A stretch of 35,499 bases of DNA from a virus. Lineage: Duplodnaviria > Heunggongvirae > Uroviricota > Caudoviricetes. Location: the IMG/VR virus record IMGVR_UViG_2541047894_000004; one strand, 5' to 3'. This document shows, in pieces, positions 1 to 35,499 of the stretch. Under the pieces are notes generated by a model. The model was not told the DNA's origin. It made no database searches and worked only from the letters and a program-made list of their open reading frames with translations. Numbering within the stretch: the first letter of the stretch is position 1; each line of letters begins with the position of its first letter. Position numbers and translations under genes: made by a program.

Positions 1-1236
1 CTACGATAACCGCGCATTCAACATAGCTACCTGTTCGTCGTTCATGTCATCAATCCACATACCGTAAATTTCATACACCATCTGCGCAGTTTCATGCCCC
101 ATCTGGCTGGCTATAAATGCCGGGTTCGCTCCTGCCGTCAACAGCCAGCAGGCAAAAGTATGTCGCGTATGGTACGGATTACGGCGGCGAATACCAGCAC
201 GTTTTACTGCTGCATTCCATCTCGCACCCAAACTGCTTACCGAGTAATAAGGTTTCTGTTTTCCGTTACACATCCTGGGCATGAAAACAAAATGCAGTTT
301 TTGCTTTTCGGTTCTGCCGTACTCCCGATGATAAAAAGTGATTTCGCTTTTGCGATGATGCCCGGTCAGTTTGTATTGCTCCTTCAGTGCTTCAAGAGCT
401 GGCTGTAGTAGTGTTACCGTCCGGATCCCCGCATTTGTTTTTGGGGGACCGAACATATCAAGTATCGTCAGGTTTCTTCTGACATTCACAATTCCCTTCT
501 CGAAATCCACATCCTCCCACGCCAGAGCTGCCAGTTCCCCGTGACGAAGCCCGGAGTAAACGGCAAATTTCCACAAGTTTTGGCTCTGTCCTTTTTCACT
601 TTCCATTAATGCATTGAATTCTGTTTTAGATAACGGGTCAGGCTTTATTCTGTTTCGCTGTAATTTTTTTACTCCTTCAAATGGTTTGGTTGATATAAAT
701 CCCGACTGATACGCAAAACGTAACAACGAACAGAGCAGGGCGATATAGTTATCAACTGTGCGCACGGTTCTTCCTTTTTTGTTGGATCTTGGATTATCCA
801 GGTAAAGCGTTTCTCCATGCAGCAGTTCATTCCGGTAGTTTAAGATATCGCTATAACGAATATGCGATATCGGGGTACTCTCACAAATTATTATCCTGAG
901 TGTTTTTAATTGTGATTTCGTTTTCTTCATTGTGTTTGTTGTTAACTCTGTCTCTTTAATTTTTGTCCAGATATCACAAAGCTCCCCGAACGTTTTTATG
1001 ACTCTCGTTGTCACCATTTTTGCCCCAGTGCTGGACTGGGGAAAACGTCTTAAATACTCAAATTCACCGGAACTGATTTCATGAACTATCAACGCTCTTA
1101 AATTCCCGGCCTTTTTAATGTTACTGTTAGTAATCTCCCAGCCTTTCAATGTTTCCCGACATCGTTTGCCTCGAAACATGAACCAGATGCGAATGTATTT
1201 ACCTCGAATCTCGACACCTGTTGGTAATTTAGACAT
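1..1236 (-). CDS. intR: Tyrosine-type site-specific integrase (IntR-like), 411 aa
   Basis: Full 411-aa ORF including stop; C-terminal HTRHTFA (HxxR) region typical of tyrosine recombinases; sits at prophage end next to xis. Confidence 0.93.
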   Translation of the reverse strand: MSKLPTGVEIRGKYIRIWFMFRGKRCRETLKGWEITNSNIKKAGNLRALIVHEISSGEFEYLRRFPQSSTGAKMVTTRVIKTFGELCDIWTKIKETELTTNTMKKTKSQLKTLRIIICESTPISHIRYSDILNYRNELLHGETLYLDNPRSNKKGRTVRTVDNYIALLCSLLRFAYQSGFISTKPFEGVKKLQRNRIKPDPLSKTEFNALMESEKGQSQNLWKFAVYSGLRHGELAALAWEDVDFEKGIVNVRRNLTILDMFGPPKTNAGIRTVTLLQPALEALKEQYKLTGHHRKSEITFYHREYGRTEKQKLHFVFMPRMCNGKQKPYYSVSSLGARWNAAVKRAGIRRRNPYHTRHTFACWLLTAGANPAFIASQMGHETAQMVYEIYGMWIDDMNDEQVAMLNARLS

Positions 1237-1237
1237 A

Positions 1238-1453
1238 TCATGAGTCTTTGATAAACTGATTTATCTTCGGATAGTTGTACCAGATAATCCCTCGCTTACT
1301 GTCTGGCTTCCCTAAAGGAGATACTCGTTTGAAGTGGAAGCCTTCCACCCAACAGTTCTGGCGGTATGCTTCAATTTGTCTGGCACCCAGACCAGTGCGA
1401 AGCATCAGGCCGTATTCAACCATCCACTCTTCATTAAAGATTACTTGTGCCAT
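1238..1453 (-). CDS. xisR: Excisionase (XisR/YdaQ-like), 71 aa from the internal ATG
   Basis: Small ORF immediately upstream of int; the ORF-track start at 1477 is TTG, the ATG at 1453 gives 71 aa ([10 protein letters not shown]...). Confidence 0.8.
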
Positions 1454-1552
1454 CGCATCACCTCTGGCAGGCGCCAATGTTAGGCTGAAATTGACGCCCG
1501 ATGTTGATTATTAATAATCAGCTATGAAGTTTTAATTTGAATACAATGCAAT

Positions 1553-1741
1553 TCACGAGGACTGAAGTTTCTCGCAATTAAAATTTATCAGTTTTACTTT
1601 CTGCTCTCTGGAAACGCCCGCTTCTTTTTTACCTGAGAGCATTTTTTCGCATTCTGATTTCGTTAGTTTAGATTTTGAATATCTTGTCCAGTTAGTAGGA
1701 GTGCCACCTTCCTTTTCAATAGTGGCGGTAATTTTATACAT
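1553..1741 (-). CDS. ydaC: Small Rac early protein (YdaC/RcbA-like); start uncertain (ATG at 1741 or 1753)
   Basis: ORF between xis and ralR; GGAGG 5 nt upstream of the ATG at 1741; that start codon overlaps the last ralR codons. Confidence 0.55.
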   Translation of the reverse strand: MYKITATIEKEGGTPTNWTRYSKSKLTKSECEKMLSGKKEAGVSREQKVKLINFNCEKLQSS

Positions 1742-1928
1742 GAACACCTCCATTATTATTTCCAGTGGTTCGTTTATTCCATCTTTCGAGTGCTTCTTTT
1801 TCACTTCCACCATAACCGGTTCGGGATTCGCATCCGTTACACTTCGCTCGGTAATATCCTGAAATGGCTTTCACCGTTACTGATGGACAACCACAAAATG
1901 GACATGGTTTAACATTGTCATATCTCAT
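1734..1928 (-). CDS. ralR: Restriction-alleviation protein Lar/RalR, 64 aa, Cys4 zinc ribbon
   Basis: MRYDNVKPCPFCGC...CNGCESRTGY with CxxC...CxxC; length and position match recalled Rac RalR. Confidence 0.88.
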   Translation of the reverse strand: MRYDNVKPCPFCGCPSVTVKAISGYYRAKCNGCESRTGYGGSEKEALERWNKRTTGNNNGGVHV

Positions 1929-1984
1929 AATTTTTCTCATAAAAAATATTTCAAGTTGGCGGTGCATTACACCGCCAGGCTGAA

Positions 1985-2530
1985 TTATTCCTCTGAATTA
2001 TCGATTACACTGTATTCCCCGGTTAATACAGAGGAATCTGCAGGATCGATTGTCAGTGGTTCCTTTTCATCCATTGATACTGCACGCTGGATCTCAATTG
2101 ATACGGGCAGATATTTGAACAGGCGACGAATAGCCGTTTTCTTTGCCATTTCTTCCCAGTGAGTTACCCACGGCCCGTTATTACCAGCTTTACTCAGGCT
2201 GCGCACCAGCTCAATCTGTTTGCGCGTCATAACTTCAAACTGAGTACCTCCGTCTTTCAGTCTTGCGACAGCATAGACGTGGGTAACCGGGGCATCTTCG
2301 TTTTCTCCCGGGCGGTGTATTAACTTTTCATCAAGGCCAAATTCGAAGCTAAACTCGTCACCTTCACGGACAACACGGGCTGACAGGCTGGCGATTTTAC
2401 CTGACTTAACGATCAGGTAGTCCAGAGTGGCACAGGTCGATTCAAAATCGTTGCTTGCCCACAGGACGACGTCAGGTTCACCGGATGATTTTTTCGCTTT
2501 CCGTAACAGGAAGAGTGGTTTTGTGCTCAT
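1985..2530 (-). CDS. recT: Truncated RecT-family annealing protein: RecE-like N-terminal 45 aa fused in frame to RecT C-terminal ~136 aa
   Basis: 181-aa ORF; C-terminal part ([31 protein letters not shown]...[35 protein letters not shown]...[12 protein letters not shown]) matches recalled RecT; N-terminal [45 protein letters not shown] matches recalled RecE start; junction near 2396. Confidence 0.7.
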
Positions 2531-2631
2531 TGTTTTTTAACCTCAACTCAGATTAAAATTCGTTTTGTTCAGTGAATGATCTTGCCGGATACACACTGTT
2601 CATAGCCTGCGCCATACGCAGGCTATTTCTT

Positions 2632-2907
2632 TCAGATTTCACCTTTTAATTTCATTGCAATCAGAGTTGCCAGAAATCCGGCTTTTTTTTCTGCGGGCAG
2701 ATTCTTTCCGATATGCACCAGGCTCATTTTTTTGACACCTTCGTGAAGTGTTTTAACGTTGCCTGATGGACCGTCGATATCAACTACAGTGAATGGGGTT
2801 TCTTTATTTTCTGTTTTAATCACGTAGCCAATACGCTTTCCTTCCAGATTAACCTCGTGAACAATGTCATCAGTAGTTACAATAGTGGTTTCATAATTAG
2901 TAATCAT
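2632..2907 (-). CDS. racC: RacC-like small protein, 91 aa
   Basis: AAGGAG 6 nt upstream of the ATG at 2907 (MITNYETTIV...); the ORF-track start at 2955 lacks an RBS. Confidence 0.78.
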   Translation of the reverse strand: MITNYETTIVTTDDIVHEVNLEGKRIGYVIKTENKETPFTVVDIDGPSGNVKTLHEGVKKMSLVHIGKNLPAEKKAGFLATLIAMKLKGEI

Positions 2908-2981
2908 GTTTTTCTCCTTAATTAAGGTTGAGCGAATCCCTGCCATTGCTGGCATGAATTCAGTTTCGCATAGTCAGTTAA

Positions 2982-3152
2982 TTAAAGTTCGTGTGCCATC
3001 TGGTCTTTTTCGGCACAGATTTCACTACAATATTTTTTCATTTCCGTCGTTGGTATAACTCCACGCATGAAATGAAGTGGTCTTTTAATGCTTTTGCTTT
3101 CTTCAACTCCTTTATTGCAAAGGTGGTAAGCACATTTTATTTTCTCAGTCAT
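2982..3152 (-). CDS. ydaE: YdaE-like Cys-rich small protein, 56 aa
   Basis: Hand-translated: [56 protein letters not shown]; its ATG overlaps the kilR stop (ATGA); below the ORF-track size cutoff. Confidence 0.65.
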   Translation of the reverse strand: MTEKIKCAYHLCNKGVEESKSIKRPLHFMRGVIPTTEMKKYCSEICAEKDQMAHEL

Positions 3153-3373
3153 CACCATGATTCCGCCTTTACAGGTAAGCCATCACGACCGAGGAAAACT
3201 TTAATCATGCAGTCAGTAATGCATGTTTTTGTGGTCAGGTTACGAATATAAAGTTTTCGCTTTTTAATATTGTTTGCCGAGGCAATATATGTCCGGCCGT
3301 TATGAAGAACATAATCACCAGGAGTCACACACTGACGTGGTATTTCATCAGTTCCGAAGTGATGAGCAATCAT
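3152..3373 (-). CDS. kilR: KilR-like cell-division inhibitor, 73 aa
   Basis: [46 protein letters not shown]... matches recalled KilR; first gene of the leftward early operon. Confidence 0.82.
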
Positions 3374-3803
3374 AATTATCTCCATTTTCACAAATGAACT
3401 TTGTTGATGCGGTGCCTGGTGCCTCCAGGTGACGTTAACCAGTTAACAATTAACGCCGGATAATCCACCCATAACTCTGATGCTTTTAACTGTTCCGCGT
3501 GCGCTTAGCCGCATTCACCGCATCACAAAATTCACTTTAAAAAGGGCGGACATCAGCCGAACTTCAAGAAAAAACTGATGCCGCCAAGGCTACACACAGC
3601 AATGTCGTTATTTACAACCGGAGGCGCACTCCCACCATTTAAATTTAACAGACAAGACCGACTCTTTATGGATACCGGAAATGCGCCTTCGTGTTGTGCC
3701 CGGTTTTATTTCACCACCTCCGGGCTTCGGTGGTCTCGGCTATACCCCTACAGCGAGAGCTTGTGTTAACATTTCAATACCCTTACAGTTGAGAGTTATT
3801 GAT

Positions 3804-4292
3804 ATGTTGGATGTATTTACTCCATTGTTGAAACTTTTTGCTAACGAGCCACTCGAAAGACTTATGTATACGATTATCATTTTTGGTCTCACTCTCTGGC
3901 TGATACCGAAAGAGTTTACTGTCGCATTCAATGCTTATACTGAAATACCTTGGCTCTTTCAGATTATCGTTTTTGCCTTTTCTTTCGTGGTCGCCATTTC
4001 CTTCTCAAGATTGCGAGCACATATTCAAAAGCATTATTCATTACTACCAGAGCAACGTGTATTGCTTCGTTTATCTGAGAAAGAAATCGCTGTATTTAAA
4101 GATTTCCTTAAAACAGGAAATCTTATTATCACTTCTCCTTGCCGTAACCCGGTTATGAAAAAATTAGAACGGAAGGGCATCATTCAACATCAGAGTGATA
4201 GCGCAAACTGTTCTTATTATCTCGTCACCGAAAAATACTCCCATTTTATGAAGTTATTCTGGAACAGCAGGAGTAGACGTTTTAATCGTTAG
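3804..4292 (+). CDS. sieB: Superinfection exclusion protein B, 162 aa
   Basis: From the ATG at 3804 (MLDVFTPLLKLFANEPLERLMYTIIIFGLTLWLIPK...), hydrophobic N-terminus; the ORF-track N-terminal extension was discarded. Confidence 0.88.
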   Translation: MLDVFTPLLKLFANEPLERLMYTIIIFGLTLWLIPKEFTVAFNAYTEIPWLFQIIVFAFSFVVAISFSRLRAHIQKHYSLLPEQRVLLRLSEKEIAVFKDFLKTGNLIITSPCRNPVMKKLERKGIIQHQSDSANCSYYLVTEKYSHFMKLFWNSRSRRFNR

Positions 4293-4455
4293 CTTACTGT
4301 GTGCTTCTCCAACCATCGGCGCGCACCAGTTTCGGTTTTAAATGTTTTGCTTTTTGTATACGTCATCGCGGTGAACGTACCGTCCTGGTTGGGTAACACG
4401 CCGCACACCAGGGATTAGTTGTTGCCGAGGTCGATTTTTTGCATTTTGGGAACTC

Positions 4456-4590
4456 TCACATCTTGTTGTTGCGGATAGAGGCTTCTGCTTGCCAGAGATC
4501 CCAGTCGTTGCTGCGTAAAGCCTGCACAGCCTGGTTGTAAGTGATACCGCAACAATCCATCAAATACTGAATTACTTCGTAATGCACCAT
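4456..4590 (-). CDS. Small prophage protein, 44 aa (YdaF/YdaG-like)
   Basis: ATG at 4590 preceded by AAGGGG; product MVHYEVIQYLMDCCGITYNQAVQALRSNDWDLWQAEASIRNNKM. Confidence 0.5.
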   Translation of the reverse strand: MVHYEVIQYLMDCCGITYNQAVQALRSNDWDLWQAEASIRNNKM

Positions 4591-4780
4591 CTTTTTTCCC
4601 CTTAACGCCGGGGGGCGGAACGTTTTATCTACTGCGCTTTGTATCAATCAACAACTGCCGTCATGTTCGTATGCCTCAGGCTGGCTACTTAGCCCTGTTC
4701 AGTGGCTGGATAACTCGAGGTATTGTCCTGCCGTTCTCCGGTGGGGCGTTGTTTGGATATGCTTATTAAACACAATTGGT

Positions 4781-4805
4781 TTTTGTGTGTCAACACAAAA
4801 TGTGT
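4781..4805. promoter_or_regulatory. Operator-like overlapping palindromes TTTTGTGT-GTCA-ACACAAAA-TGTGT downstream of racR
   Basis: Perfect inverted repeats read directly from the sequence; same ACACA/TGTGT half-site as in the racR-ydaS intergenic region. Confidence 0.45.
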
Positions 4806-4837
4806 TTTTATAGTGGCGTGTCATATGATGATGGTAC

Positions 4838-4861
4838 AAAAAAAGCCCGCCGATAGCGGGC
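4838..4861 (-). terminator. Rho-independent terminator downstream of racR
   Basis: On the minus strand: GCCCGC-tatcg-GCGGGC stem-loop followed by a U7 tract, 32 nt after the racR stop. Confidence 0.75.
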
Positions 4862-4892
4862 TGATTGGCATATTACTGTGATAGCAAGATCA

Positions 4893-5312
4893 TTACTCCG
4901 GTGGGGGGGTATCTTTAAGCCTGCCCCTCAAATATTTTTCTACATACTCGTCGATTTCTTTTAGCCGGACTTCAAATAGCTCAATCATTCGTTGTTGTTC
5001 TGAGCCCGGTAGCTGGTTAAACAACTCAAGAAGTTTTCGTTGGGATTCATTTAACCACAATTCAGAAGAGTCTTTTTCCCCAAAGAGGAGCTCAGGAGGA
5101 GATATGCCCAGTGCCTTTCCCAGGACGACAGCATCATGCACTCCAACATTTCTGCTGCCCGCCTCATAGTTACCTATACGCGATTGCGTCCATCCGCAGA
5201 TTTCAGCAAGTTTTCCTTGAGATAAACCAAGCTTCTGCCTGCGCTCTTTAAGACGCATTGCAATTTTGTCATTGAGCCTACTAGCGGCAATTTTTTCGTT
5301 TTCTTTTTCCAT
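4893..5312 (-). CDS. racR: CI-like HTH (XRE family) prophage repressor, RacR-like, 139 aa
   Basis: HTH-like stretch LGLSQGKLAEICGWTQSRIGNYEAG; divergent from a cro-like gene; RBS AAGGA upstream. Confidence 0.82.
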   Translation of the reverse strand: MEKENEKIAASRLNDKIAMRLKERRQKLGLSQGKLAEICGWTQSRIGNYEAGSRNVGVHDAVVLGKALGISPPELLFGEKDSSELWLNESQRKLLELFNQLPGSEQQRMIELFEVRLKEIDEYVEKYLRGRLKDTPPPE

Positions 5313-5323
5313 TTCGTCCTTGT

Positions 5324-5390
5324 ATCACGAATCGTGATTTATATAAAACACAAAATAGCTTGACCGTAAAACACAAGATGTGTTTAAAAT
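5324..5390. promoter_or_regulatory. Divergent promoter/operator region between racR and ydaS
   Basis: Palindromes ATCACGA-A-TCGTGAT (5324-5338) and AAACACA-AGA-TGTGTTT (5369-5385) in the 96-bp gap between divergent HTH genes. Confidence 0.5.
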
Positions 5391-5408
5391 TGTCGTCGGA
5401 GGTTTTTA

Positions 5409-5651
5409 ATGAACAAAATTTCAACATATCGAAAACAACTTGGTCTGTCTCAAAGACAACTCGCTGTTCAGCTAGGGTGGATACAAAGCCGACTAGCAAA
5501 TTACGAAGCAAACTTTCGTACCCCTGGGCTAGAGGAGTGCAGAAAAATTGTTTCCACCCTTAATCGGCTTGGTGCTCATTGTGGACTTGACGATGTATTC
5601 CCCCCAGACGGTAAGCATAGCGAAAACAGCATAGGAGCGGTTGATTCATGA
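5409..5651 (+). CDS. ydaS: Cro-like HTH protein (YdaS-like), 80 aa
   Basis: GGAGG RBS; HTH-like LGLSQRQLAVQLGWIQSRLANYEA; divergent from the repressor. Confidence 0.78.
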   Translation: MNKISTYRKQLGLSQRQLAVQLGWIQSRLANYEANFRTPGLEECRKIVSTLNRLGAHCGLDDVFPPDGKHSENSIGAVDS

Positions 5652-6070
5652 AAATCAGGCATGAGCACATCGAATCAGTGTTGTTAGCCCTGGCAGCCGA
5701 AAAAGGGCAGGCGTGGGTTGCTAACGCAATTACTGAAGAATATCTGCGCCAGGGGGGCGGCGAATTGCCCCTGGTACCAGGCAAGGACTGGAACAATCAG
5801 CAGAATATCTATCACCGTTGGTTGAAAGGTGAAACGAAAGCGCAAAGGGAAAAAATTCAGAAACTGATCCCTGCGGTTCTGGCAATTCTTCCGCGCGAGC
5901 TGCGTCACCGACTCTGCATCTTCGATACCCTGGAACGCCGTGCATTACTGGCGGCGCAGGAAGCGTTGAGTACGGCAATTGATGCGCATGATGATGCAGT
6001 CCAGGCCGTTTACCGTAAAGCATATTTCAGCGGCGGTGGGTCGCCCGGCGATTCTGTCGTAGTGCATTGA
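5648..6070 (+). CDS. ydaT: YdaT-like (CII-like) protein, 140 aa
   Basis: Start overlaps the ydaS stop (ATGA); length matches recalled YdaT; position equivalent to lambda cII. Confidence 0.75.
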   Translation: MKIRHEHIESVLLALAAEKGQAWVANAITEEYLRQGGGELPLVPGKDWNNQQNIYHRWLKGETKAQREKIQKLIPAVLAILPRELRHRLCIFDTLERRALLAAQEALSTAIDAHDDAVQAVYRKAYFSGGGSPGDSVVVH

Positions 6071-6114
6071 TTGAAATTAATCGTGCCGGACTGTTTTGTT
6101 CGGTATCAGTTAAA

Positions 6115-6558
6115 TGTAACGCTTACAGCGTTACAAGGTGAAAACAATATGGCTTCAAACTGGATAAAGCTCGAGGTTATTACGCCGGATAAGCCGGAAA
6201 TATTCAGGCTTGCTGAGATTCTGAATATTGATCCAGATGCCGCATTAGGGAAAGTCATTCGCTTCTGGGCATGGGCGGATCAACAAATGATAGACGGTAA
6301 CGCAGAGTGTAACGCTCGCGGCGTTACAAAAAGTGCAATAGATCGCATCACTTTTATGGCTGGTTTTGCTGATGCGTTAATTCAGGTTGGATGGCTGGTC
6401 GAAAATAACGGTGGGCTTTCTCTACCTAACTTTGAACGTCATAACGGAAAAAGCTCTAAAAAACGGGCGATTACAAACGAGAGGGTTACAAAAATACGCG
6501 AACTGAAACGAAAAGGTAACGCTGCCAGCGTTACACAAACGGATCAAAAAGCGTTACC
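6115..6558. repeat. Ori-like array of GTAACGC/GCGTTAC palindromes and half-sites with phased A-tracts
   Basis: Palindromes TGTAACGCT-TAC-AGCGTTACA (6115-6135), TGTAACGC-TCGCG-GCGTTACA (6308-6328), GTAACGCTG-C-CAGCGTTAC (6516-6534); half-sites at 6470, 6484, 6551; A-tracts 6440-6515; GAGGAA x3 at 6560-6577. Confidence 0.5.
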
Positions 6559-6937
6559 AGAGGAAGAGGAAGAGGAAGATATAAATACTGATCTCCCCCT
6601 AAATCCCCCTCGCCAAAAACGAGCATCTAAAAAATTCGAGCCGGAGGCTATTGAGTTGCCCGATTGGTTGCCGGAAACACTCTGGCATGAGTGGGTCCGG
6701 TTCAGGCAGGCATTGCGAAAACCGATTCGAACGGAGCAGGGCGCTAACGGGGCGATACGGGAACTGGAAAAATTCCGCCAGCAGGGTTTTACCCCTGAGC
6801 AGGTGATTCGACATAGCATCGCCAATGAATACCAGGGCTTGTTCGCGCCGAAAGGTGTTCGGCCTGAGACGTTGCTCAGACAGGTTAACACTGTCTCGTT
6901 GCCGGACAGTGCGATCCCGCCAGGCTTCAGGGGGTAA
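6149..6937 (+). CDS. ydaU: Replication initiator O-like protein (YdaU-like); start taken at the ATG at 6149 (AAGGTG RBS)
   Basis: Sits just upstream of the DnaC-like gene; carries internal palindromic repeats and an acidic EEEEEED linker as in lambda O; the ORF-track start at 6071 is TTG. Confidence 0.75.
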   Translation: MASNWIKLEVITPDKPEIFRLAEILNIDPDAALGKVIRFWAWADQQMIDGNAECNARGVTKSAIDRITFMAGFADALIQVGWLVENNGGLSLPNFERHNGKSSKKRAITNERVTKIRELKRKGNAASVTQTDQKALPEEEEEEDINTDLPLNPPRQKRASKKFEPEAIELPDWLPETLWHEWVRFRQALRKPIRTEQGANGAIRELEKFRQQGFTPEQVIRHSIANEYQGLFAPKGVRPETLLRQVNTVSLPDSAIPPGFRG

Positions 6938-6943
6938 CGAACC

Positions 6944-7690
6944 ATGAAAAATATTGCGACAGGCGGCGTTCTGGAACGCATCCGCCGACTGACCCCGCCA
7001 CATGTAACCGCCCCATTCAGAACGGTAGCGGAGTGGCGCGAGTGGCAACTTGCTGAAGGCCAGAAACGTAGCGAGGAGATCAACCGCCTGAATCGCCAGT
7101 TGCGGGTGGAAAAAATTCTGAATCGCTCAGGCATCCAGCCGTTGCACCGTAAATGCTCGTTTGCGAATTACCAGGTGCAGAACGACGGTCAGCGATACGC
7201 GTTGAGCCAGGCGAAATCTATCGCTGATGAACTGATGACCGGGTGTACAAATTTTGCGTTCAGCGGAAAACCTGGTACCGGAAAAAACCATCTGGCGGCG
7301 GCTATCGGGAATCGCCTGCTGAAAGATGGCCAGACAGTGATTGTGGTTACCGTGGCTGATGTCATGAGTGCTCTACACGCCAGCTATGACGACGGGCAAT
7401 CAGGCGAAAAATTTTTGCGGGAACTGTGCCAAGTGGATCTGCTGGTTCTTGATGAAATTGGCATTCAGCGCGAGACAAAAAACGAGCAGGTGGTGCTGCA
7501 CCAGATTGTTGATCGCCGGACAGCGTCGATGCGCAGCGTGGGGATACTGACAAACCTGAACTATGAGGCCATGAAAACATTGCTCGGCGAGCGGATTATG
7601 GATCGCATGACCATGAACGGCGGGCGATGGGTGAATTTTAACTGGGAGAGCTGGCGTCCGAATGTCGTCCAGCCAGGAATTGCGAAGTGA
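6944..7690 (+). CDS. ydaV: DnaC-like helicase loader, AAA+ ATPase (YdaV-like)
   Basis: Walker [11 protein letters not shown], Walker [10 protein letters not shown]; follows the O-like gene. Confidence 0.9.
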
Positions 7691-7712
7691 TTTTTACCGG
7701 GAGGAAATTTTA

Positions 7713-8474
7713 ATGGAAACCGTTTTTGATGCACTGAAAGCAATGGGAAAAGCCACGTCGGTAGAACTGGCTGCGCGACTTGATATCAGTCGTGAAGAAG
7801 TGCTGAATGAGCTGTGGGAACTTAAAAAGGCTGGCTTCGTTGATAAAAGCGTATACACCTGGCGTGTGGCTGATAACAACGTTCAGCAGGAACAGCCAGA
7901 GCAGGCAGAACTGCCGGAAGAAACCACCACGGCAACAGTAGCGAAAATCTCAGAGTGCGATTTAACCGCGACGATTGAACAACGTGGCCCACAAACGGCG
8001 GATGAACTGGCTACGTTTTTCGGCACCACATCACGCAAAGTGGCTTCAACGCTGGCAATGGCAATCAGCAAAGGCCGTCTGATTCGCGTTAATCAGAACG
8101 GTAAATTTCGTTACTGCATGCCGGGCGATGATTTACCAGCAGAGCCGAAAGCTGCATCGGTAACGGAAACTGATGGTAAAGCCTTTCCTCAACCAGCAGG
8201 TGTTGCGTTACCGGGACAGGAAGCTGCAACACAGGAAGATATTAAAACAGAAACTGTGGCGGACATTGTGCAGTCGTTGCCATCGTTTACCGAAACGCGA
8301 GCGGATGACCTCGTTCTGCCATCGCTGCATATGGCAAACCGCGAACTGCGTCGGGCGAAAAATCATGTCCAGAAGTGGGAGCGTGTCTGCGCCGCGCTGC
8401 GGGAGCTGAACAAGCACCGGGATATTGTTCGACAGATTACTGATTCTTCTCGCTGTGTTGCATCGGAAAAGTGA
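7713..8474 (+). CDS. Hypothetical nin-region protein, 253 aa, with two winged-helix-like repeats
   Basis: GGGAGG RBS before the ATG at 7713; internal repeat [19 protein letters not shown] / [19 protein letters not shown]; function unknown. Confidence 0.6.
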
Positions 8475-8489
8475 TTGCCGGAGGCGCTT

Positions 8490-8888: not shown

Positions 8889-9069
8889 AATTTTCGTTAT
8901 TTATAGACGTAACTAGATTAAAGAGCATTAGTTCAGATGTGAATTGACATTTTCACGGCACAGGATTGAGCTAGCGTGGTTGTCTGCTTTGCGTCAAAAG
9001 CAGATATTACAAGATTTAGACATCTATTCCCGATAGCCCTGCTCTGATGCTACACTCTGTGCTATTTTC

Positions 9070-26066: not shown

Positions 26067-26076
26067 ACATTCAAAC

Positions 26077-26096
26077 GGGGCTTCGGCCCCATTTTT
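26077..26096 (+). terminator. Terminator hairpin after the major capsid gene
   Basis: GGGGC-ttcg-GCCCC followed by ATTTTT. Confidence 0.65.
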
Positions 26097-26108
26097 AATG
26101 GAGGGCAT

Positions 26109-26285: not shown

Positions 26286-26288
26286 CAC

Positions 26289-27067: not shown

Positions 27068-27448
27068 ATGGCAAAGGCATGGGATATAGAACCGTCAATA
27101 TTTGCCGGGATGATTGAGGAAGATGTGGGGCTGAAGATTCGCTACATCGCTATGCAGATTCTTACTGCTATTGATATTGCTGCTCCGGTTGATACCGGAC
27201 GTTTCAGAAATAACAACCTGGTGTCGTTACAGCATCCCGATTTTGGTATATCTGATAACGTGGATCCGAACGGTACGATTGCGGTTCAGCGTGGGATCGG
27301 GGTTATTTCGAAAGCTGCAAATTACGGAGTTATTTATATCCAGAATAACCTTCCTTATGCAGAGGCTCTTGAAAACGGTCATTCACAACAAGCGCCAACT
27401 GGCGTGTATGCCAACGCTTTTCATGGTGTTTTACAGGCTTACAAATGA
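27068..27448 (+). CDS. Tail-associated structural protein candidate
   Basis: AAGGAG RBS; position. Confidence 0.5.
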   Translation: MAKAWDIEPSIFAGMIEEDVGLKIRYIAMQILTAIDIAAPVDTGRFRNNNLVSLQHPDFGISDNVDPNGTIAVQRGIGVISKAANYGVIYIQNNLPYAEALENGHSQQAPTGVYANAFHGVLQAYK

Positions 27449-27837
27449 CGTTTACTGAAATCAGAAATACGGTTATTTCCAGAATGACGGCACAGACGAT
27501 TATTGATGGAAAAGACGTATTGTATCCGAACGGGCCAACGTTCGATCCTTCCGGTAAATTAATCTGGGCGCGGTTAAGTAATATTCCCGGGCAGGCTGGA
27601 GTTAATGAAATTGGCGCGGGGCCGGTTGTTTATCGCACGGGGATAATCATTATTCAGTTATTTGTCCCCGCAGGTTCTGGTTCAAAACTCATTACTGAGA
27701 CAGCCGATAAATTGCGGGAACTGTTTGAGTTTCAGGATGACGATCGTCTCAGTTACCAGGCTGTTTCCTCAATAGCCGTTGGCGAAAAGAATGGCTGGTT
27801 CCAGCTTAATCTTCAAATTCCATATCGCGCGCTCTAG
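27445..27837 (+). CDS. Tail completion / tail terminator candidate
   Basis: Start overlaps the upstream stop (ATGA); precedes the major tail gene. Confidence 0.5.
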   Translation: MTFTEIRNTVISRMTAQTIIDGKDVLYPNGPTFDPSGKLIWARLSNIPGQAGVNEIGAGPVVYRTGIIIIQLFVPAGSGSKLITETADKLRELFEFQDDDRLSYQAVSSIAVGEKNGWFQLNLQIPYRAL

Positions 27838-27863
27838 CGCAATTAATGACATAGGAGGCTCCT

Positions 27864-28826
27864 GTGAGTTCAGGTGCAAAGGTTATCTCGGCATTTATCC
27901 GGGAGACAGTTGCAGGCACTACGCCAGCAAGTGGTGACTGGAGTTTATTAAAACGAACAAGCTGGGGAGTAAAACCCACCCAGAATAAAGGCGAAAATAA
28001 TGAGATTGGTGGCTCCCGGATGGCTCAGGGGGCGACGCCTGGCACTGTGGATGTCGGCGGTGATGTTGGTACCAAATTTCGCTGGGGTCAACATGATGAT
28101 TTTCTTGCATCCTGTTTCGGCGCGGAATGGTCAGGCGATTCTCTGACAATGGGGAATGAGCGAATAACATTTTCTCTGGCGACCTATGCGTCCGATGTCG
28201 GAATTGCCTCTGTCGTCAGAGGAGCGCAGGTTGGCTCATGGAAAATGCAGATCCCTAACGACGGCGATATTACAGCGACCGTAACCTTTGCCGGGCTGGA
28301 CTGGGAATCAAAGGCCGATGATACGAATTTTATCAAAGGCGAACCTGTGGATAGTGCAGGAAAGCTACGTTATTCGTTTAAGGAGGTTTCAGCAGTAAGC
28401 CTGAATGGTGTTGCCGGAGGTAACGGTTTTTGTATCGACAGTTTTGATATTCAGTTCGATAACAAACTCCAGACACAGCGTTGTATCGGGACTGGCTCGC
28501 CTTATGCAGGAGCAAATATTCCGACTACTTTTACACCGTCCGGTACGGTGACGCTTTCATGGTCTAAAGCTGCGTGGGAAATCTGGAGTAAAACACTGAC
28601 TGGAGAAACAGTTCCGTTCAGCTTCACGCTTTCGAATGGAGAGGGGGCATACACTTTCAGTTTCCCGAAGGTTCAGGTGTCAGGTGAATGGCCTGATGGG
28701 GGTAATACCGACATTATCCAGGTTCAATTGAGCATTACCGCAGCAGATGAAGCACCTACGATAACCAGAAAAAAAGCCTCCCCGGCTGCCGTGATCGCAA
28801 AAGCCAGTGCTGAGGCGATTAGTTGA
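27864..28826 (+). CDS. Major tail (tube) protein, 320 aa, GTG start
   Basis: AGGAGG RBS; position immediately before the tail assembly chaperone G/GT. Confidence 0.7.
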   Translation: MSSGAKVISAFIRETVAGTTPASGDWSLLKRTSWGVKPTQNKGENNEIGGSRMAQGATPGTVDVGGDVGTKFRWGQHDDFLASCFGAEWSGDSLTMGNERITFSLATYASDVGIASVVRGAQVGSWKMQIPNDGDITATVTFAGLDWESKADDTNFIKGEPVDSAGKLRYSFKEVSAVSLNGVAGGNGFCIDSFDIQFDNKLQTQRCIGTGSPYAGANIPTTFTPSGTVTLSWSKAAWEIWSKTLTGETVPFSFTLSNGEGAYTFSFPKVQVSGEWPDGGNTDIIQVQLSITAADEAPTITRKKASPAAVIAKASAEAIS

Positions 28827-28874
28827 TTTTCCGTTATTCCCCCTGTGGTACTGCACTACAGGGGGGCGCATTGA

Positions 28875-29336
28875 ATGAGGTTATGGATGTTTATTCTTAA
28901 TCAGAAAATTATCATCGGTGGTGAACGCTGGTTTACCCCAATGAAGGACTTAAAACCTGTAGACGGGTTAAAACTGTTGGTGGCAAGCAGCGATAACGAT
29001 CAGTATCGCTCCCGTAATGCATTAATCCGTCGCCACATTGAGAAAATGGATGCCAGTTTGCACGTCGGAACGAAGGAGTTTGATATTGCAAAGGTTTCCG
29101 AGGTGGATTCTGTTGATGATTTACTCATTGATAATGCTGCTCGTTATCTGCTGAAAGACTGGAAAGGGGTTGGTGAACTGGTTGATGGTGTTGAGGTTGC
29201 ACTGGAATATACGCCAGAACGAGGGATCGCGCTGCTTAAGCAGAATCCGGAGTTGTACTGGCAGATCCTTGCAGAAGCAGCCAGCATCGCCCAGGGTAAA
29301 GAGCAGCAGAAGCAGGATACGATAAAAAAGCCATAG
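28875..29336 (+). CDS. Tail assembly chaperone G-like (start uncertain)
   Basis: Ends just after the slippery heptamer A-AAA-AAG at 29324-29330; precedes the tape measure gene. Confidence 0.7.
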   Translation: MRLWMFILNQKIIIGGERWFTPMKDLKPVDGLKLLVASSDNDQYRSRNALIRRHIEKMDASLHVGTKEFDIAKVSEVDSVDDLLIDNAARYLLKDWKGVGELVDGVEVALEYTPERGIALLKQNPELYWQILAEAASIAQGKEQQKQDTIKKP

Positions 29337-29644
29337 CCGCCCAGCGGTGGTTATCGGAGTTCGGGGGAGAAAAGGGTGAAAAGGCAAGATGGAAGCGAGA
29401 AAAACTCAGGTTGCCACCGATACCGGAACCAGAAATAGACCCGGTGCTTAAGGAATTGTTGTACGCCTATTCGGTAATATCCCGTGCCCGACGTTATGCT
29501 GGAATGACTGGGGTGCCTTTGCCTTTATCTCTGACAGAGATAAATGAATATTTAGCCACTCATCCGGTATTGATTGAGCGCGATGAATTTGAAGCAGTGA
29601 TCTTTGCACTGGATGACCAGTATTTTCAGGAGCAGTGTGTGTAG
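28875..29644 (+). CDS. Tail assembly chaperone GT-like fusion made by a -1 programmed frameshift at 29324-29330
   Basis: The -1 frame after A-AAA-AAG is open with no stop from 29330 into the 29411-29644 ORF (both positions are 2 mod 3). Confidence 0.6.
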
Positions 29645-29767
29645 TTGTTAATTACGTACACTCTGTTACAGAGATGTGATGGTGTCTTTAATTAAATCGA
29701 TGATGCTCCTGGAGAAAAGCATTGCGTGGCCTCGTAATCGCTATATCTACTATTATGTCGCCTGAAA

Positions 29768-29787
29768 CCCACTTCGGTGGGTTTTTT
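29768..29787 (+). terminator. Terminator-like hairpin upstream of the tape measure gene
   Basis: CCCAC-ttcg-GTGGG followed by T6. Confidence 0.5.
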
Positions 29788-29807
29788 GTTGTCAGGAGTT
29801 TTAATAA

Positions 29808-32800
29808 ATGGCAGAGCAAACCTCGCGTCTCGCAATAATTATTGATAGCACTGGAGCGAAAAATAATGCTGACAATCTGACCTCCTCATTAGTCAAAATG
29901 ACGCAGGCTGGGAAAACTGCTGCAAATAGCGCAGGGAAAGTGACTAAGGCAACAGAAGATGAGAAGAACGCGCTCGCAAAATTAAAAGCAGCTATTGATC
30001 CAGTTGGTGCCGCAATTGATACTGTCGGTCGACGCTATTCTGAATTAAAGAAATTTTTCGATAAAGGGCTTATTGATAAAGAAGAATATGAATTTCTTGT
30101 CCGTAAACTTAATGAAACCACAGAGGAATTGAGCGGGGTTGCGCAAGCGCAGAGAGAAGCCGAGAAGGCCGGAAAACTTGCTGCCGCCCAGCAGGAAGCG
30201 CAGGCTCAGGCCTTTCAAAGAATGCTGGACAAGATCGACCCTCTGGCTGCGGCGCTAAGAAATCTTGAACAACAGCAGGATGAACTTAATGCTGCGTTTG
30301 CATCCGGGAAAATAAATGGTTCTCAGTTTGAGAATTATAGCCGAAAAATACAGGAAACACGGCGAGAGCTTACCGGAGAGGCTCAGGCAGAGCGAGAAGC
30401 AGCAAAAGCGCATGATGAACAGGTTGTTGCTTTGCAACGTCTGATTGCTCAACTTGACCCTGTCGGAACTGCTTTTAACCGCCTGACAGAGCAGCAAAAG
30501 CAACTCAGCGAAGCAAAAGCCAAGGGGATGCTTTCTCCTGAAATGTATGAGGAGCTTTCAGGAAAACTTCGTGCTATGCGGAGTGAGCTTGAGGCTACTC
30601 AATCGCAACTAAGCAAAACCGGAATGTCGGCAAAACAAACGGCTTTTGCTATGCGCATGTTGCCTGCACAAATGACGGATATTGTTGTTGGGTTGTCCAC
30701 TGGTCAGTCGCCATTTATGGTGTTAATGCAGCAGGGCGGCCAGCTAAAAGATATGTTCGGTGGGATTGGCCCGGCAATCAAAGGTGTAGGTTCTTATGTG
30801 CTGGGATTAATTAATCCTTTTACCCTGGCCGCAGCAGCCGTTGGCGTCTTAGGGCTGGCTTACTATAAAGGCTCTCAGGAGCAGAACGAATTTAATAAAT
30901 CTCTTATTCTTACCGGAAATCAGTTGGGGACAACCAGCGGGCAATTGGCCGATATAGCTCAACGTGCCGGGAATGCGGCTGATTCGACAACTGGCGCTGC
31001 GGCGGCAGTATTAAACCAGCTTGTGCGTTCGGGAAAGGTAGCGAGCAGTTCGCTGGAGCAAGTGACGACAGCGATAGTAAAAACGAGCGAAGTAACAGGA
31101 ATATCAACCGAACAACTGGTTAATGACTTCAATGAAATTGCAAAGGATCCTGTCAGTGCTATATCAAAACTTAATGATCAGTACCATTTTCTGACACTTG
31201 CGACTTATAACCAAATTAAGGCGCTACAGGATGAAGGGAACCAGCAGGAGGCCGCCCGCATTGCGACAGAAGCATACTCATCCTCAATGATCCAGCGCAC
31301 CAACCAGATTAAAGAAAATCTTGGTTATCTTGAGACTGCATGGAAAGCTGTCGCAGACTCCGCAAAATGGGCATGGGATTCCATGCTGGATATTGGCCGT
31401 GAGGCCTCCCTTGATCAAAAAATCTCAGATGTTCTCCGTCAAATTGATGAAATAGAAAAAAATACCCGACCCGGAGTTTTCGGGTTAGGTGGCATTGGAG
31501 ATGGCGGAGCTCAAAATAAAAAGCTGGCACGATTAAAGCAGCAATTGGGCGTACTTCAAGCAGAAAAAATTGCTCAGGACGTACTAAATTCATCAATAAA
31601 CGATTACAACAAGCGACAACAGGAAGGAATTGAACTCAGACAGAGAGCAGATGCTTTTTCAAAACAATATCAGACCCGGGAGCAGCAGAGAGCTAGTGAA
31701 CTTGCAAAACTGGAAAAGCTAAAGAATCAGTATTCAAAGGAAGAATATAATAATCTTATCGCTCAAATAAATGAGCGTTACGAAGATCCAAAGCAACCAA
31801 AGGCGAAAGGTTATTCGGATGATGCTGCCCAACGAATGATTGATCATCTGAATCAACAGAATGCGTTACTAAGTTCACAAGCTGAATTGACCGTTAAATT
31901 AAGTTCCTCTGAACAGGAACTGGTTAAGTGGCGTCAGCAGATTGCCGACCTGGAGTCACGACCGTCATCGAAATTAACCCAAGAGCAGAAATCACTTCTC
32001 TTACACCGGGAAGAAATAACCGCGTTGATGGAGAAAAATGTTGCGATTGAAAAAAATAACAGGCTAATCAAAGAATCCGCCGAAATAGCCGCATGGCGTG
32101 ATTCATTGCAGGCTTCGATTGATAATCGTCAGCAGGGGTATGATATTCAGATTGCTGGTTATGGGGTTGGCGATAAAAATCAGCAACGCCAGCAGGAATT
32201 ACTGCGGATTGAACGTGAATATAACAATCAGCGTCTGCAACTTGAACGTGACTATGCAGATAAATCCCGTGGAATGTCAAATCATGTTTTTCAGGAGAAA
32301 ATGCAGGCTCTGAATGATGCTCTGGAACGAGAAAAAGAAATTGTCAGCCAGAAAAACGAGCAGCTCGATATTCTGGCAGGAGACTGGATTAGTGGTGCCT
32401 CCCAAGGATTCAATAACTGGCTGGATGACACTAAGGATATCGGTGCGCAGATAAAATCAACCACGACTCAGATGTTTGATGGGATGACCGATGCGCTAGG
32501 TGATTTTGTCACGACAGGCAAGGCAAATTTTCGTTCTTTCGCTACTTCCGTGATTTCGGATCTTAGTCGAATTGCATTAAAGGCTTCAATTACTGGGATT
32601 TTCGACAGCATTAGTAACAGTTCTTCTGGGGGTATTTTAGGAACTATCGGGAGTGCTATTAGTAAATTTATTCCGAATGCAAAGGGCGGTGTTTATGAGT
32701 CTCCGTCATTGAGTACATATTCGAACGGTATTTATGACTCCCCGCAATTTTTTGCTTTTGCAAAAGGAGCTGGTGTTTTTGGTGAGGCTGGACCGGAAGC

Positions 32801-33041
32801 TATTATGCCATTAACGCGAACTTCCGATGGTTCTCTTGGTGTCAGAGCTATTAATAGTAAAAGTGGTAATGGAGGCAGAGATATTACTTATGCCCCTGTA
32901 TACCAAATCACTATTCAAAATGACGGCCAGAATGGAGAGATTGGTCCTCAGGCAATAAAAGCACTTATGGGGATGGTTGATCAGCGGGTGCAGGGCGCTC
33001 TGTTAAATATGCGACGTGATGGAGGAATGTTAAGTGGCTAA
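29808..33041 (+). CDS. Tail tape measure protein, 1077 aa
   Basis: Size, coiled-coil-rich N-terminal half, Gly-rich C-terminal region; position after G/GT. Confidence 0.9.
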
Positions 33042-33372
33042 TACGGAAGAATTTTACTGGTTACCAGAGGATGGAATGAAAACAGAAAATAAGCCATCGA
33101 TAAAAACTGTAAGATTTGGCGATGGTTATGAACAACGAAGCCCAAACGGACTTAATCATTCTCTGCGTGTTTTTACCTGTGATTTCAGGGTTGAGGCGAA
33201 TGAACGTAATTCATTTGAACTGTTTCTGGCTCGGCATGGAGGCTATAAATCTTTTTTTTGGCGCCCGCCGGGTATTAACAGAAAAATCAGAGTGGTGTGT
33301 CGAACGTGGTCAGCGACAGAACATATCACCTATACCGATTTTTCATGTCAGTTTGACGAAGTGGTGATCTGA
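33034..33372 (+). CDS. M: Minor tail protein M (lambda gpM-like), GTG start
   Basis: [16 protein letters not shown]... aligns with recalled lambda gpM (VRFGDGYSQRAPAGLN). Confidence 0.85.
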
Positions 33373-34070
33373 TGCAGGACATACGACAGGAAACACTGAA
33401 TGAATGTATCCGTGCGGAGCAGTCGGCCAGCGTGGTGCTCTGGGAAATTGATCTGACAGAGGTCGGTGGGGAGCGTTACTTTTTCTGCAATGAGCAGAAC
33501 GAAAAAGGTGAACCGGTTACCTGGCAGGGGCGAAAGTATCAGGCGTACCCCATTCAGGGAAGCGGCTTTGAGATGAACGGTAAGGGCAGCAGCGCACGTC
33601 CCACACTTAAGGTATCAAACCTGCACGGCATGGTCACCGGGATGGCGGAAGATCTGCAGAGTCTGGTCGGCGGAACAGTGGTCCGGCGTAAGGTTTACGC
33701 CCGTTTTCTGGATGCGGTGAACTTCGTCAACGGAAACAGCGAAGCCGATCCGGAGCAGGAGGTGATCAGCCGCTGGCGCATCGAGCAGTGCAGCGAACTG
33801 AACGCGGTTAGCGCGGCCTTTGTGCTGTCCACGCCGACGGAAACGGATGGTGCTGTTTTTCCGGGGCGCATCATGCTGGCCAACACCTGCACCTGGACCT
33901 ATCGCGGTGATGAGTGCGGTTATAGCGGTCCGGCGGTCGCGGATGAATATGACCAGCCGACGTCCGATATCACGAAGGATAAATGCAGCAAATGCCTGAG
34001 TGGCTGTAAGTTCCGCAATAACGTCGGCAACTTTGGCGGCTTCCTTTCCATTAACAAACTTTCGCAGTAA
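33372..34070 (+). CDS. L: Minor tail protein L (lambda gpL-like), 232 aa
   Basis: Length and sequence resemble lambda gpL; C-terminal Cys cluster (CSKCLSGCKF). Confidence 0.88.
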   Translation: MQDIRQETLNECIRAEQSASVVLWEIDLTEVGGERYFFCNEQNEKGEPVTWQGRKYQAYPIQGSGFEMNGKGSSARPTLKVSNLHGMVTGMAEDLQSLVGGTVVRRKVYARFLDAVNFVNGNSEADPEQEVISRWRIEQCSELNAVSAAFVLSTPTETDGAVFPGRIMLANTCTWTYRGDECGYSGPAVADEYDQPTSDITKDKCSKCLSGCKFRNNVGNFGGFLSINKLSQ

Positions 34071-34075
34071 ATCCC

Positions 34076-34819
34076 ATGACAGAGACAGAATCAGCGATTC
34101 TGGCGCACGCCCGGCGATGTGCGCCAGCGGAGTCGTGCGGCTTCGTGGTGAGAACGCCGGAGGGGGAAAGATATTTTCCCTGCGTGAATATTTCCGGTGA
34201 GCCGGAGGAGTATTTCCGGATGGCTCCGGAGGACTGGCTGCAGGCAGAGATGCAGGGTGAGATTGTGGCGCTGGTCCACAGCCACCCCGGTGGTCTGCCC
34301 TGGCTGAGTGAGGCCGACCGGCGGCTGCAGGTGCAGAGTGATTTGCCGTGGTGGCTGGTCTGCCGGGGGGCGATTCACAAGTTCCGCTGTGTGCCACATC
34401 TTTCCGGGCGGCGCTTTGAGCACGGGGTGACGGACTGTTACACGCTGTTCCGGGACGCTTACCATCTGGCGGGGATTGAGATGCCGGATTTTCATCGCGG
34501 GGATGACTGGTGGCGTAACGGCCAGAATCTCTATCTTGACAATATGGAGGCGACTGGTTTTTACCGTGCCGCACTGACAGAGGCGCAGCCGGGCGATGTG
34601 CTGCTGTGCTGCTTTGGTTCATCGGTGCCGAATCATGCCGCCATTTACTGCGGCGACGGCGAGCTGCTGCACCATATTCCTGAACAACTGAGCAAACGAG
34701 AGAGGTATACCGACAAATGGCAGCGACGCACACACTCCCTCTGGCGTCACCGGGCATGGCGCGCATCTGCCTTTACGGGGATTTGCAACGATTTGGCCAC
34801 CGCATCGACCTTCGTGTGA
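34076..34819 (+). CDS. K: Tail assembly protein K (lambda gpK-like; MPN/JAB plus NlpC/P60 domains)
   Basis: HSHP JAMM-like motif and Cys/His peptidase-like region; position between L and I. Confidence 0.88.
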   Translation: MTETESAILAHARRCAPAESCGFVVRTPEGERYFPCVNISGEPEEYFRMAPEDWLQAEMQGEIVALVHSHPGGLPWLSEADRRLQVQSDLPWWLVCRGAIHKFRCVPHLSGRRFEHGVTDCYTLFRDAYHLAGIEMPDFHRGDDWWRNGQNLYLDNMEATGFYRAALTEAQPGDVLLCCFGSSVPNHAAIYCGDGELLHHIPEQLSKRERYTDKWQRRTHSLWRHRAWRASAFTGICNDLATASTFV

Positions 34820-35364
34820 AAACGGGAGCCGAAGCTATCCGGGCGCTGGCCACGCAGCTCCCGGCGTTTCGTCAGAAACTGAATGAGGGCTGGTATCAGG
34901 TGCGCATTGCCGGGCGTGATGCAGGCGAAAACGAATTATCTGCCCGTCTTAATGAGCCGCTGGCAAATGGTGCCGTGATCCACATCGTACCGCGTCTGGC
35001 GGGTGCCAAAAGTGGCGGTGTTTTTCAGGCAGTGCTGGGGGCTGCGCTGATTGCGGTGGCATGGTGGAACCCTGTGGGCTGGCTGGGTGCCGCGGCTGTA
35101 TCGGGTATGTATGCGGCAGGGGCCAGTATGATCCTGGGCGGTGTGGCGCAGATGCTGGCACCGAAAGCCAGAACTCCCCGCACACAGACAACGGATAACG
35201 GCAAACAGAACACGTATTTCTCCTCACTGGATAACATGGTTGCCCAGGGGAATGTTCTGCCCGTTCTGTACGGTGAAATGCGCGTGGGGTCACGCGTGGT
35301 ATCTCAGGAGATCAGCACGGCAGACGAAGGGGATGGTGGTCAGGTTGTGGTGATTGGTCGATGA
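34717..35364 (+). CDS. I: Tail assembly protein I (lambda gpI-like)
   Basis: MAATHTLPLASPGMARICLYGDLQRFG... and the C-terminal YFSSLDNMVAQGNVLPVLYGEMRVGSRVVSQEISTADEGDGGQVVVIGR match recalled gpI; overlaps the K 3' end as in lambda. Confidence 0.9.
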   Translation: MAATHTLPLASPGMARICLYGDLQRFGHRIDLRVKTGAEAIRALATQLPAFRQKLNEGWYQVRIAGRDAGENELSARLNEPLANGAVIHIVPRLAGAKSGGVFQAVLGAALIAVAWWNPVGWLGAAAVSGMYAAGASMILGGVAQMLAPKARTPRTQTTDNGKQNTYFSSLDNMVAQGNVLPVLYGEMRVGSRVVSQEISTADEGDGGQVVVIGR

Positions 35365-35385
35365 TGCAAAATATTTTATGTGAAA

Positions 35386-35404
35386 CCGCCTCCGGGCGGT
35401 TTTG
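35386..35404 (+). terminator. Hairpin between I and J
   Basis: CCGCC-tccg-GGCGG followed by TTTTG. Confidence 0.4.
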
Positions 35405-35424
35405 TCGTTTATGGAGCATGACGA

Positions 35425-35499
35425 ATGGGTAAAGGCAGCAGTAAGGGGCATACCCCGCGCGAAGCGAAGGACAACCTGAAGTCCACGCAGTTGCTGAGT
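35425..35499 (+). CDS. J: Host specificity / central tail fibre protein J, 5' partial (first 25 codons)
   Basis: MGKGSSKGHTPREAKDNLKSTQLLS matches the recalled start of lambda gpJ; truncated by the window end. Confidence 0.9.
   Translation, partial: MGKGSSKGHTPREAKDNLKSTQLLS

Follow-up and report, generated by a model that had tools for sequence, protein, structure and literature searches.

In Escherichia coli K-12, the Rac prophage is called incomplete by comparison with the copy in O157 in the passage of PMC6379469 that cites Lawrence 2001. Larger relatives have been described: E. coli O157:H7 carries Sp10 and CP-933R, two Rac-like prophages inserted in ttcA (PMC4632033), the LT-II prophages are called full-sized Rac-like prophages where PMC5917428 cites Jobling 2016, and the Rac-like phage KingRac (46,834 bp), which came from an E. 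coli of the mouse gut, took the place of K-12 Rac at ttcA and forms particles (Frazao et al. 2019, PMC6731689). The stretch analyzed here, IMG/VR record IMGVR_UViG_2541047894_000004 (35,499 nucleotides, called the window below), is, judging from its genes, the left 35.5 kb (intR through gpI) of a Rac-like lambdoid prophage of full size inserted at ttcA. In this, it resembles KingRac, even if the window element is known from genes alone and KingRac was compared by its description. With Sp10, CP-933R and the LT-II prophages, it shares the full-size Rac-like organization with toxin or other cargo (and, for Sp10 and CP-933R, the location in ttcA), but their cargo is different, their modules are partly different and no recET deletion is reported in the passages devoted to them (PMC4632033, PMC5917428). 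The element class is already known, and the only part specific to the window is a recET deletion allele limited to one clone. The window very probably represents an ordinary, nearly intact Rac-like prophage with a single, recent and private recET deletion, and there is no sign of a special evolutionary route.

The window was compared by blastn with positions 1,408,000-1,438,000 of MG1655, in which K-12 Rac occupies 1,411,899-1,434,958. Six collinear blocks are shared, with 91-98% nucleotide identity:

Window 1-2404: intR to the 3' part of recT, 97.9%
Window 2395-4748: 5' end of recE to beyond sieB, 93.7%
Window 5642-6068: ydaT, 93.4%
Window 6576-8162: 3' part of ydaU, ydaV and 5' part of ydaW, 91.4%
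Window 14994-17424: 3' part of Rz, Rz1, trkG and ynaK, 96.7%
Window 28985-30742: ydaY, with the 5' end of the gene for the tape measure (ynaA), 98.2%

Window positions 8163-14993, 17425-28984 and 30743 to the end at 35499 are missing from K-12 Rac, and both internal gaps have clean junctions. K-12 Rac has thus undergone a 6.8-kb deletion from DUF1627 to Rz and an 11.6-kb deletion from ParB to the tail tube, and the sequence that lies beyond the 5' end of its tape-measure gene is missing. These deletions are older than the recET deletion of the window. The chromosomal flank, 98.1% identical between K-12 and the lineage of the window, provides a scale for the prophage blocks: some are as similar to K-12 as the host backbone, while others are clearly more diverged. 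The synteny with Rac assumed by an earlier sequence-only reading of the window is borne out by this alignment, as is its view that genes absent from K-12 Rac are retained here: a Q-like late regulator, tRNAs, an intact lysis cassette, QueH, hok and doc were all recovered (Pfam, Rfam, ARAGORN and blastn).

The likeness to K-12 Rac includes the integrase, the excisionase, the ttcA site and the gene order ralR/RalA, racC, ydaE, kilR, sieB, ydaT, ydaU, ydaV, continued by Rz/Rz1, trkG, ynaK and ydaY as far as the 5' end of the tape-measure gene. K-12 Rac differs in its intact recE and recT, in an unrelated repressor/Cro-like pair and in the IS5 inserted in lomR. No similarity to RacR or YdaS was detectable in the repressor and the Cro-like protein of the window, so the RacR/YdaS immunity is not the one found here, and window positions 4749-5641 have no nucleotide match in the MG1655 Rac region (blastn). 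Since its immunity region is unrelated to racR/ydaS, the element is a heteroimmune, mosaic member of the Rac-like group and not an undecayed K-12 Rac.

Among 5,426 complete E. coli genomes searched by megablast, copies 99.9% identical to the window were found in DLL7555, AHB29, CH4811 and L1PEag1, and a copy with 99.7% identity in APEC O1. APEC O1 (NC_008563), AHB29 (NZ_OZ547246) and DLL7555 (NZ_CP186931) carry the same cargo and structural genes at 99.7-99.9% identity over the whole window; they differ in that they have kept 2,857 bp and have intact recE and recT. In megablast, the first 25 kb of the window aligns as two pieces over 27.86 kb in each near-identical copy. The same 2,857 bp are missing relative to K-12, with the junction at window positions 2395-2397, where GGCTGGCGATTT is directly followed by TACCTGACTT (junction-spanning 31-40-mer, GGCTGACAGGCTGGCGATTTTACCTGACTTAACGATCAGG). 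Base-by-base inspection of the junction left TTT (3 bp) as the exact microhomology, within an imperfect 10-mer; an exact microhomology of 10 bp, taken from the BLAST overlap, was rejected.

The collapse of recE and recT noted from the sequence is hence real, and its product is an in-frame fusion open reading frame (ORF) of 181 aa on the minus strand (1985-2530), in which RecE residues 1-45 are joined to RecT residues 134-269. Pfam recognizes positions 1-45 of 203 of the Exonuc_VIII profile and positions 68-187 of 198 of the RecT profile. Of the 866 residues of RecE, only 1-45 are left, without the C-terminal exonuclease region, and the annealase core of RecT is incomplete, as residues 1-133 and Pfam positions 1-67 of 198 are gone. 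Because the whole nuclease region of RecE and the first third of the RecT core have disappeared, RecET function is presumably lost, and the domain content suggests that the phage's own recombination system is dead. A single illegitimate recombination would have joined recE codon 45 to recT codon 134, removing the 2,857 bp in one small clone.

Outside recET, the window is well preserved. All 51 coding sequences of APEC O1 besides recE and recT have full-length counterparts, and the comparison with AHB29, a copy without a pseudogene flag, revealed no indels and 21 single-nucleotide polymorphisms (SNPs) over 33 kb, none of them between ~10 and 33 kb. In the comparison with annotated relatives, no lesions were found in the lysis, packaging, head and tail-shaft genes within the window, which holds the late regulator, lysis, packaging, head and tail-shaft genes expected in a complete, potentially active lambdoid siphovirus prophage. 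Disruptive mutations in structural genes, which the sequence-only reading had named as evidence that would speak against it, are therefore not present in the window. Its claim of full packaging, head and tail modules holds from the terminase to gpI, all full length; a full tail module is unproven, as gpJ and the genes that follow lie outside the window.

Other Rac-like copies show lesions of their own. In APEC O1, terS (extract 32941-34035) contains one internal stop, either a private lesion of the strain or an error in the genome sequence, whereas terS is intact in the window and AHB29. In other assemblies of the same element, the portal is called as two genes, and J genes are interrupted by several kilobases. 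Damage to recE is also seen elsewhere: BL21 has an internal deletion with recT kept, strain 95_0274 carries an IS600 in the gene and ABW_A19 has only its 5' half, all with breakpoints other than those of the window. These scattered lesions form the pattern expected of random mutational decay at different time depths and give no support for selection.

In a search with a 301-bp probe, not one of the 5,426 complete genomes spans the deletion junction, and 1,833 of them carry the two halves of the probe apart. The ralR-racC segment, recE and recT included, is covered to at least 80% in 1,614 of the same genomes. In a much larger assembly collection, the exact fusion protein occurs on six contigs (three from NCBI draft assemblies, two from Logan run assemblies and one from a further, similar place), against 931 blocks indexed for the exact tape-measure protein and 651 for gpI. 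The 8,016-bp chromosomal flank of the carriers is 100% identical to that of the recET-intact DLL7555, and the prophage DNA of two carriers, compared with DLL7555 over 12.3 kb and with the deletion left aside, shows 0-1 SNP. Two deletion contigs differ elsewhere by 11-12 SNPs. The deletion is thus real and heritable, though rare. Because the junction is rare, and the flank is identical and the prophage almost identical to those of recET-intact strains, the data point to one recent deletion event inside one clone. The lesion is not shared and maintained across a host lineage, as that of a domesticated prophage would be.

The sequence-only reading had gone further and proposed that two Rac lineages had taken separate domestication routes, with selection in the lineage of the window possibly for virion production or cargo rather than for RecET; on this view, K-12 would have been selected to keep RecET. 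The gene sets retained by the two elements are complementary, the cargo (QueH, hok/sok, doc and trkG) is intact and the structural genes are invariant among relatives, as this proposal would have it. However, the deletion exists in one clone only and in none of the complete genomes, and the nearest relatives, with identical flanks, keep recET. A recently active phage has intact structural genes anyway, without selection at the level of the host, and other relatives carry structural-gene lesions instead. Moreover, the recET segment is kept in the 1,614 genomes mentioned above, and recE is broken elsewhere in several unrelated ways. Two separately selected routes are hence very unlikely. What stands of the two decay patterns is that the deletions are different and were acquired independently; the domestication routes do not, as the loss of recET is clone-limited, and selection for virions or cargo rather than RecET is unsupported with no complete genome, six contigs and an identical recET-intact background. 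The "opposite" patterns are independent deletions of very different age and spread, not alternative selected routes.

The deletion could also have been adaptive for the phage itself, if a cargo-laden genome had become too long for terminally redundant packaging and the 2.9-kb loss had restored packageability. The terminase resembles those of headful packagers, and recET lies in the early-left region of lambdoid phages, which is dispensable in lambda. The element measures ~52.6 kb in AHB29 compared with 46.8 kb in the active KingRac (PMC6731689). Yet capsid capacity and the cdt status of the carriers are assumptions of this explanation, by far the most copies have not been shortened and the carriers resemble one bacterial clone rather than a spreading phage, which makes it highly improbable. 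The same low credence is given to the broader idea of an adaptive trimming of an active, cargo-overloaded phage, due either to the headful limit or to a costly module, with a fusion product that might retain activity. An assembly artefact, such as a repeat collapse, has a practically negligible probability: the six contigs with the fusion ORF come from no fewer than five separate assemblies or runs, among them two Logan read assemblies, two carrier contigs differ elsewhere by their 11-12 SNPs and the 3 bp of exact identity at the junction offer no repeat to collapse. Finally, the element might not be Rac at all, but an unrelated lambdoid phage sharing its integrase and attachment site. The repressor and Cro-like genes, unrelated to racR/ydaS, the 5' part of ydaU without a K-12 match and the several shared blocks with 91-94% identity against 98.1% for the chromosomal flank would fit such an origin; the six collinear blocks, which cover ~90% of K-12 Rac from intR to ynaA once the recET segment is restored, and the exact mapping of both internal K-12 deletions with clean junctions do not, and we consider it a scarcely credible explanation.

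Several points weigh against the reading as an ordinary prophage with a private recent deletion. The collection of complete genomes is biased and contains many K-12 laboratory derivatives, so the 338 and 348 genomes in which the two internal K-12 junctions are spanned do not represent natural frequencies, even if strains other than K-12 derivatives are included in these counts. The neutrality of the deletion is deduced from its rarity and recency, and a recent selective event in one clone is possible. With gpJ, lom, the fibers, attR and attL beyond the window, this copy is only putatively complete and able to excise. TerL is 40-44% identical to that of Jerseyvirus and Kagunavirus phages, which are headful packagers, and this identity is the only pointer to headful packaging here.

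Placed among the leftward early genes beside the immunity region, the fusion ORF is unlikely to be expressed in the lysogen. As red mutants of lambda are able to grow on recA+ hosts, the loss of RecET need not abolish phage production, and, by analogy, the prophage could still be inducible and form particles in a recA+ host. If packaging is headful, the injected DNA would have to circularize by recombination between its redundant ends through the host RecA, probably less efficiently. In P22, erf mutants depend on the host RecA in this way. The deletion allele could serve as a natural recET-null control for the need of a recombinase in induction, circularization and lysogeny. For the rest, the comparison confirms K-12 Rac as a relative, reduced by large deletions, of full-size and sometimes active Rac-like phages. 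Selection cannot be deduced from two decayed copies alone, as the population frequency and the age of each lesion are needed. Beyond such bookkeeping, the significance of the deletion is small.

The window extends from the stop codon of intR (minus strand) to ~60 bases short of the J gene in a lambdoid tail cluster. An IntR-type integrase and XisR are present at the 5' end of ttcA, which identifies the element as Rac-like; ttcA and attL lie just left of window base 1. In APEC O1, AHB29 and DLL7555, ttcA adjoins the element with intR beside it, in the same arrangement as in K-12 Rac. Window positions 1-12530 recur with 100% identity in contig KE701508.1 of GCA_000460095.1, which continues into ttcA-dbpA-zntB. 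This strain or a clone-mate is the probable source of the window. The element would belong to a widespread, almost invariant prophage population, in which recE and recT are normally intact, and its host would be an extraintestinal-type E. coli.

AHB29, the closest complete relative, has an element of ~52.6 kb, counted from attL to a repeat that resembles attR. Past the end of the window (extract 29925-43417), this element carries gpJ, lom and genes for tail fibers, besides cdtABC type IV and genes for an alpha/beta hydrolase and an omptin protease. These distal genes, including cdtABC type IV, identify the family of the window as a CDT-IV-carrying lambdoid prophage of extraintestinal E. coli. 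The AHB29 element agrees with the lambdoid CDT-IV prophages reported by Toth et al. 2009, so far as they are presented in PMC13459982, in which that work is cited. On the attR side (extract 44206-44665), the ttcA-5'/int-3' region is repeated over 121 bp with 91.7% identity, and after this repeat come part of an integrase and a piece of DUF1627. They look like remnants of an older Rac-like prophage beside the present one and suggest a repeated occupation of the ttcA site.

Two kinds of annotated records were set aside. The "ynaK pseudogene" of DLL7555 (extract 31028-31285) was dropped as a private lesion, since its DNA is identical to that of the window and the 263-aa ORF is intact there; the call is probably an annotation artefact caused by a short K-12 YnaK reference protein. 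No viable phage was deduced from the phage-database matches of the structural module to SPF_0923 and to the vB_EcoS-...R series, as the one record inspected holds an incomplete genome in which both recE and the tape-measure gene are split.

The early half of the window contains the following features:

1-1236, minus strand: intR integrase, 100% protein identity to IntR of APEC O1
1238-1453, minus strand: xisR excisionase, 100% protein identity to XisR of APEC O1
1553-1741, minus strand: rcbA-like DUF1187 gene, from the comparison with relatives
1557-1735, plus strand: RalA antisense small RNA, Rfam 220.7 bits
1734-1928, minus strand: ralR type I toxin
1985-2530, minus strand: recE'-'recT chimeric ORF of 181 aa, from Pfam and the alignment to intact RecE and RecT
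2632-4590: early-left accessory genes, namely racC-like, ydaE, kilR (minus), sieB (3804-4292, plus), ydaF-like and ydaG-like, 93.7% nucleotide identity to K-12
4893-5312, minus strand: helix-turn-helix repressor, in the immunity region (4893-6070)
5409-5651: Cro-like helix-turn-helix protein, in the immunity region
5648-6070: YdaT/CII-like protein, 93.4% nucleotide identity to K-12
6149-8888, plus strand: replication genes and neighbors (ydaU-like initiator, DnaC-like ydaV, DUF1627 and DUF977)
8490-8888, plus strand: DUF977 protein, ending 6 codons early through a patch of SNPs
9091-11042, plus strand: cargo slot without a K-12 Rac match, from Pfam and Rfam
9091-9756, plus strand: QueH (Pfam)
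9824-10000, plus strand: sok RNA (Rfam)
10013-10150, plus strand: hok (Pfam)
10359-10538, plus strand: 59-aa ORF
10557-11042, plus strand: Fic/Doc toxin (Pfam)

The patch that shortens the DUF977 protein consists of 10 SNPs clustered in ~350 bp (8660-9011), with one further SNP at 9952, and occurs only in the window and the identical contig of GCA_000460095.1. It introduces a stop, by which the protein is reduced from 138 to 132 aa. The patch is missing from the other deletion carriers and from the recET-intact relatives compared, and it looks like a short gene-conversion tract. In ON470595 (vB_EcoS-683R6), a related Rac-like record whose racR immunity is of the K-12 type, the position of QueH, hok and doc is taken by a fragment of a kinase, an ATPase resembling FtsH and an S8 peptidase (10124-14142). 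As the genes differ, the slot that separates the replication genes from DUF1367 is a site for variable cargo, perhaps defense genes.

The late half is organized as follows:

11550-12972, plus strand: DUF1367 gene, DUF1364/YbcO gene and DUF1133 gene
12436-12972, plus strand: DUF1133, late antiterminator Q-like (Pfam DUF1133, E=7e-103; Phage_antitermQ, 28.2 bits with a cut-off of 26)
13335-13488, plus strand: tRNA-Thr(TGT) and tRNA-Gly(TCC) (ARAGORN)
14265-15438, plus strand: lysis cassette with P21-type holin, lysozyme, Rz and embedded Rz1 (15194-15379)
15576-17033, plus strand: trkG potassium transporter, cargo in common with K-12 Rac
17171-18887, plus strand: ParB/Srx-N-domain protein, then a TAGT-family glycosyltransferase (Pfam)
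19078-26066, plus strand: packaging and head genes, namely terS, terL, DUF4055 portal, Mu-F-like minor head protein, DUF6651 and P22-type major capsid protein (Pfam)
From 26109, plus strand: head-tail connector and tail genes, with four small ORFs, the tail terminator and the tail tube (27864-28826)
28977-29644, plus strand: YdaY chaperone with -1 frameshift extension
29808-33041, plus strand: tape measure, 1,077 aa
Tail region to 35364, plus strand: homologues of gpM, gpL, gpK and gpI, from the annotation of relatives and precomputed Pfam matches

The spacer between the Q-like gene and the holin (12973-14264, ~1.3 kb), presumably the position in which Stx phages carry stx, contains only the two tRNAs and several terminator-like hairpins. 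Seven terminator-like sites were counted against 1.4 expected by shuffling, which has no bearing on the main finding. Between the tRNAs and the holin, window positions 13489-14264 are 85.7% identical to the LT-IIb Rac-like phage fragment KU052038. Of the lysis genes that follow, K-12 Rac has kept as a remnant only the 3' part of Rz and rzoR.

The glycosyltransferase gene, of the TAGT family (TET-associated, "GREB1-related"; Pfam E=6e-36), overlaps the ParB/Srx-N gene by 8 bases and ends slightly more than 100 bp upstream of terS, with a small 69-aa ORF in between. No TET/JBP or cytosine-methylase gene is present in the window beside this pair. The pair may form a DNA-modification or anti-restriction module; in the literature on such pairs, only T-even-type uses of TAGT were found, and no account of why the pair should occur here. 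The packaging and head stretch (19078-26066) is identical to that of AHB29, and at the other end of the late genes the start of gpJ lies beyond the window.

A slippery heptamer, A AAA AAG, is located at 29324, at the end of ydaY, and a -1 shift at this site reads through a separately annotated 66-aa ORF to 29644. YdaY looks like a tail assembly chaperone of the lambda G/GT type with a programmed frameshift, and ydaY of K-12 would be the remnant of such a gene. The full-size element thus allows remnants of K-12 Rac to be mapped: ynaK corresponds to the 5' end of the ParB-like gene, ydaY to the tail assembly chaperone and ynaA to the 5' end of the tape-measure gene.

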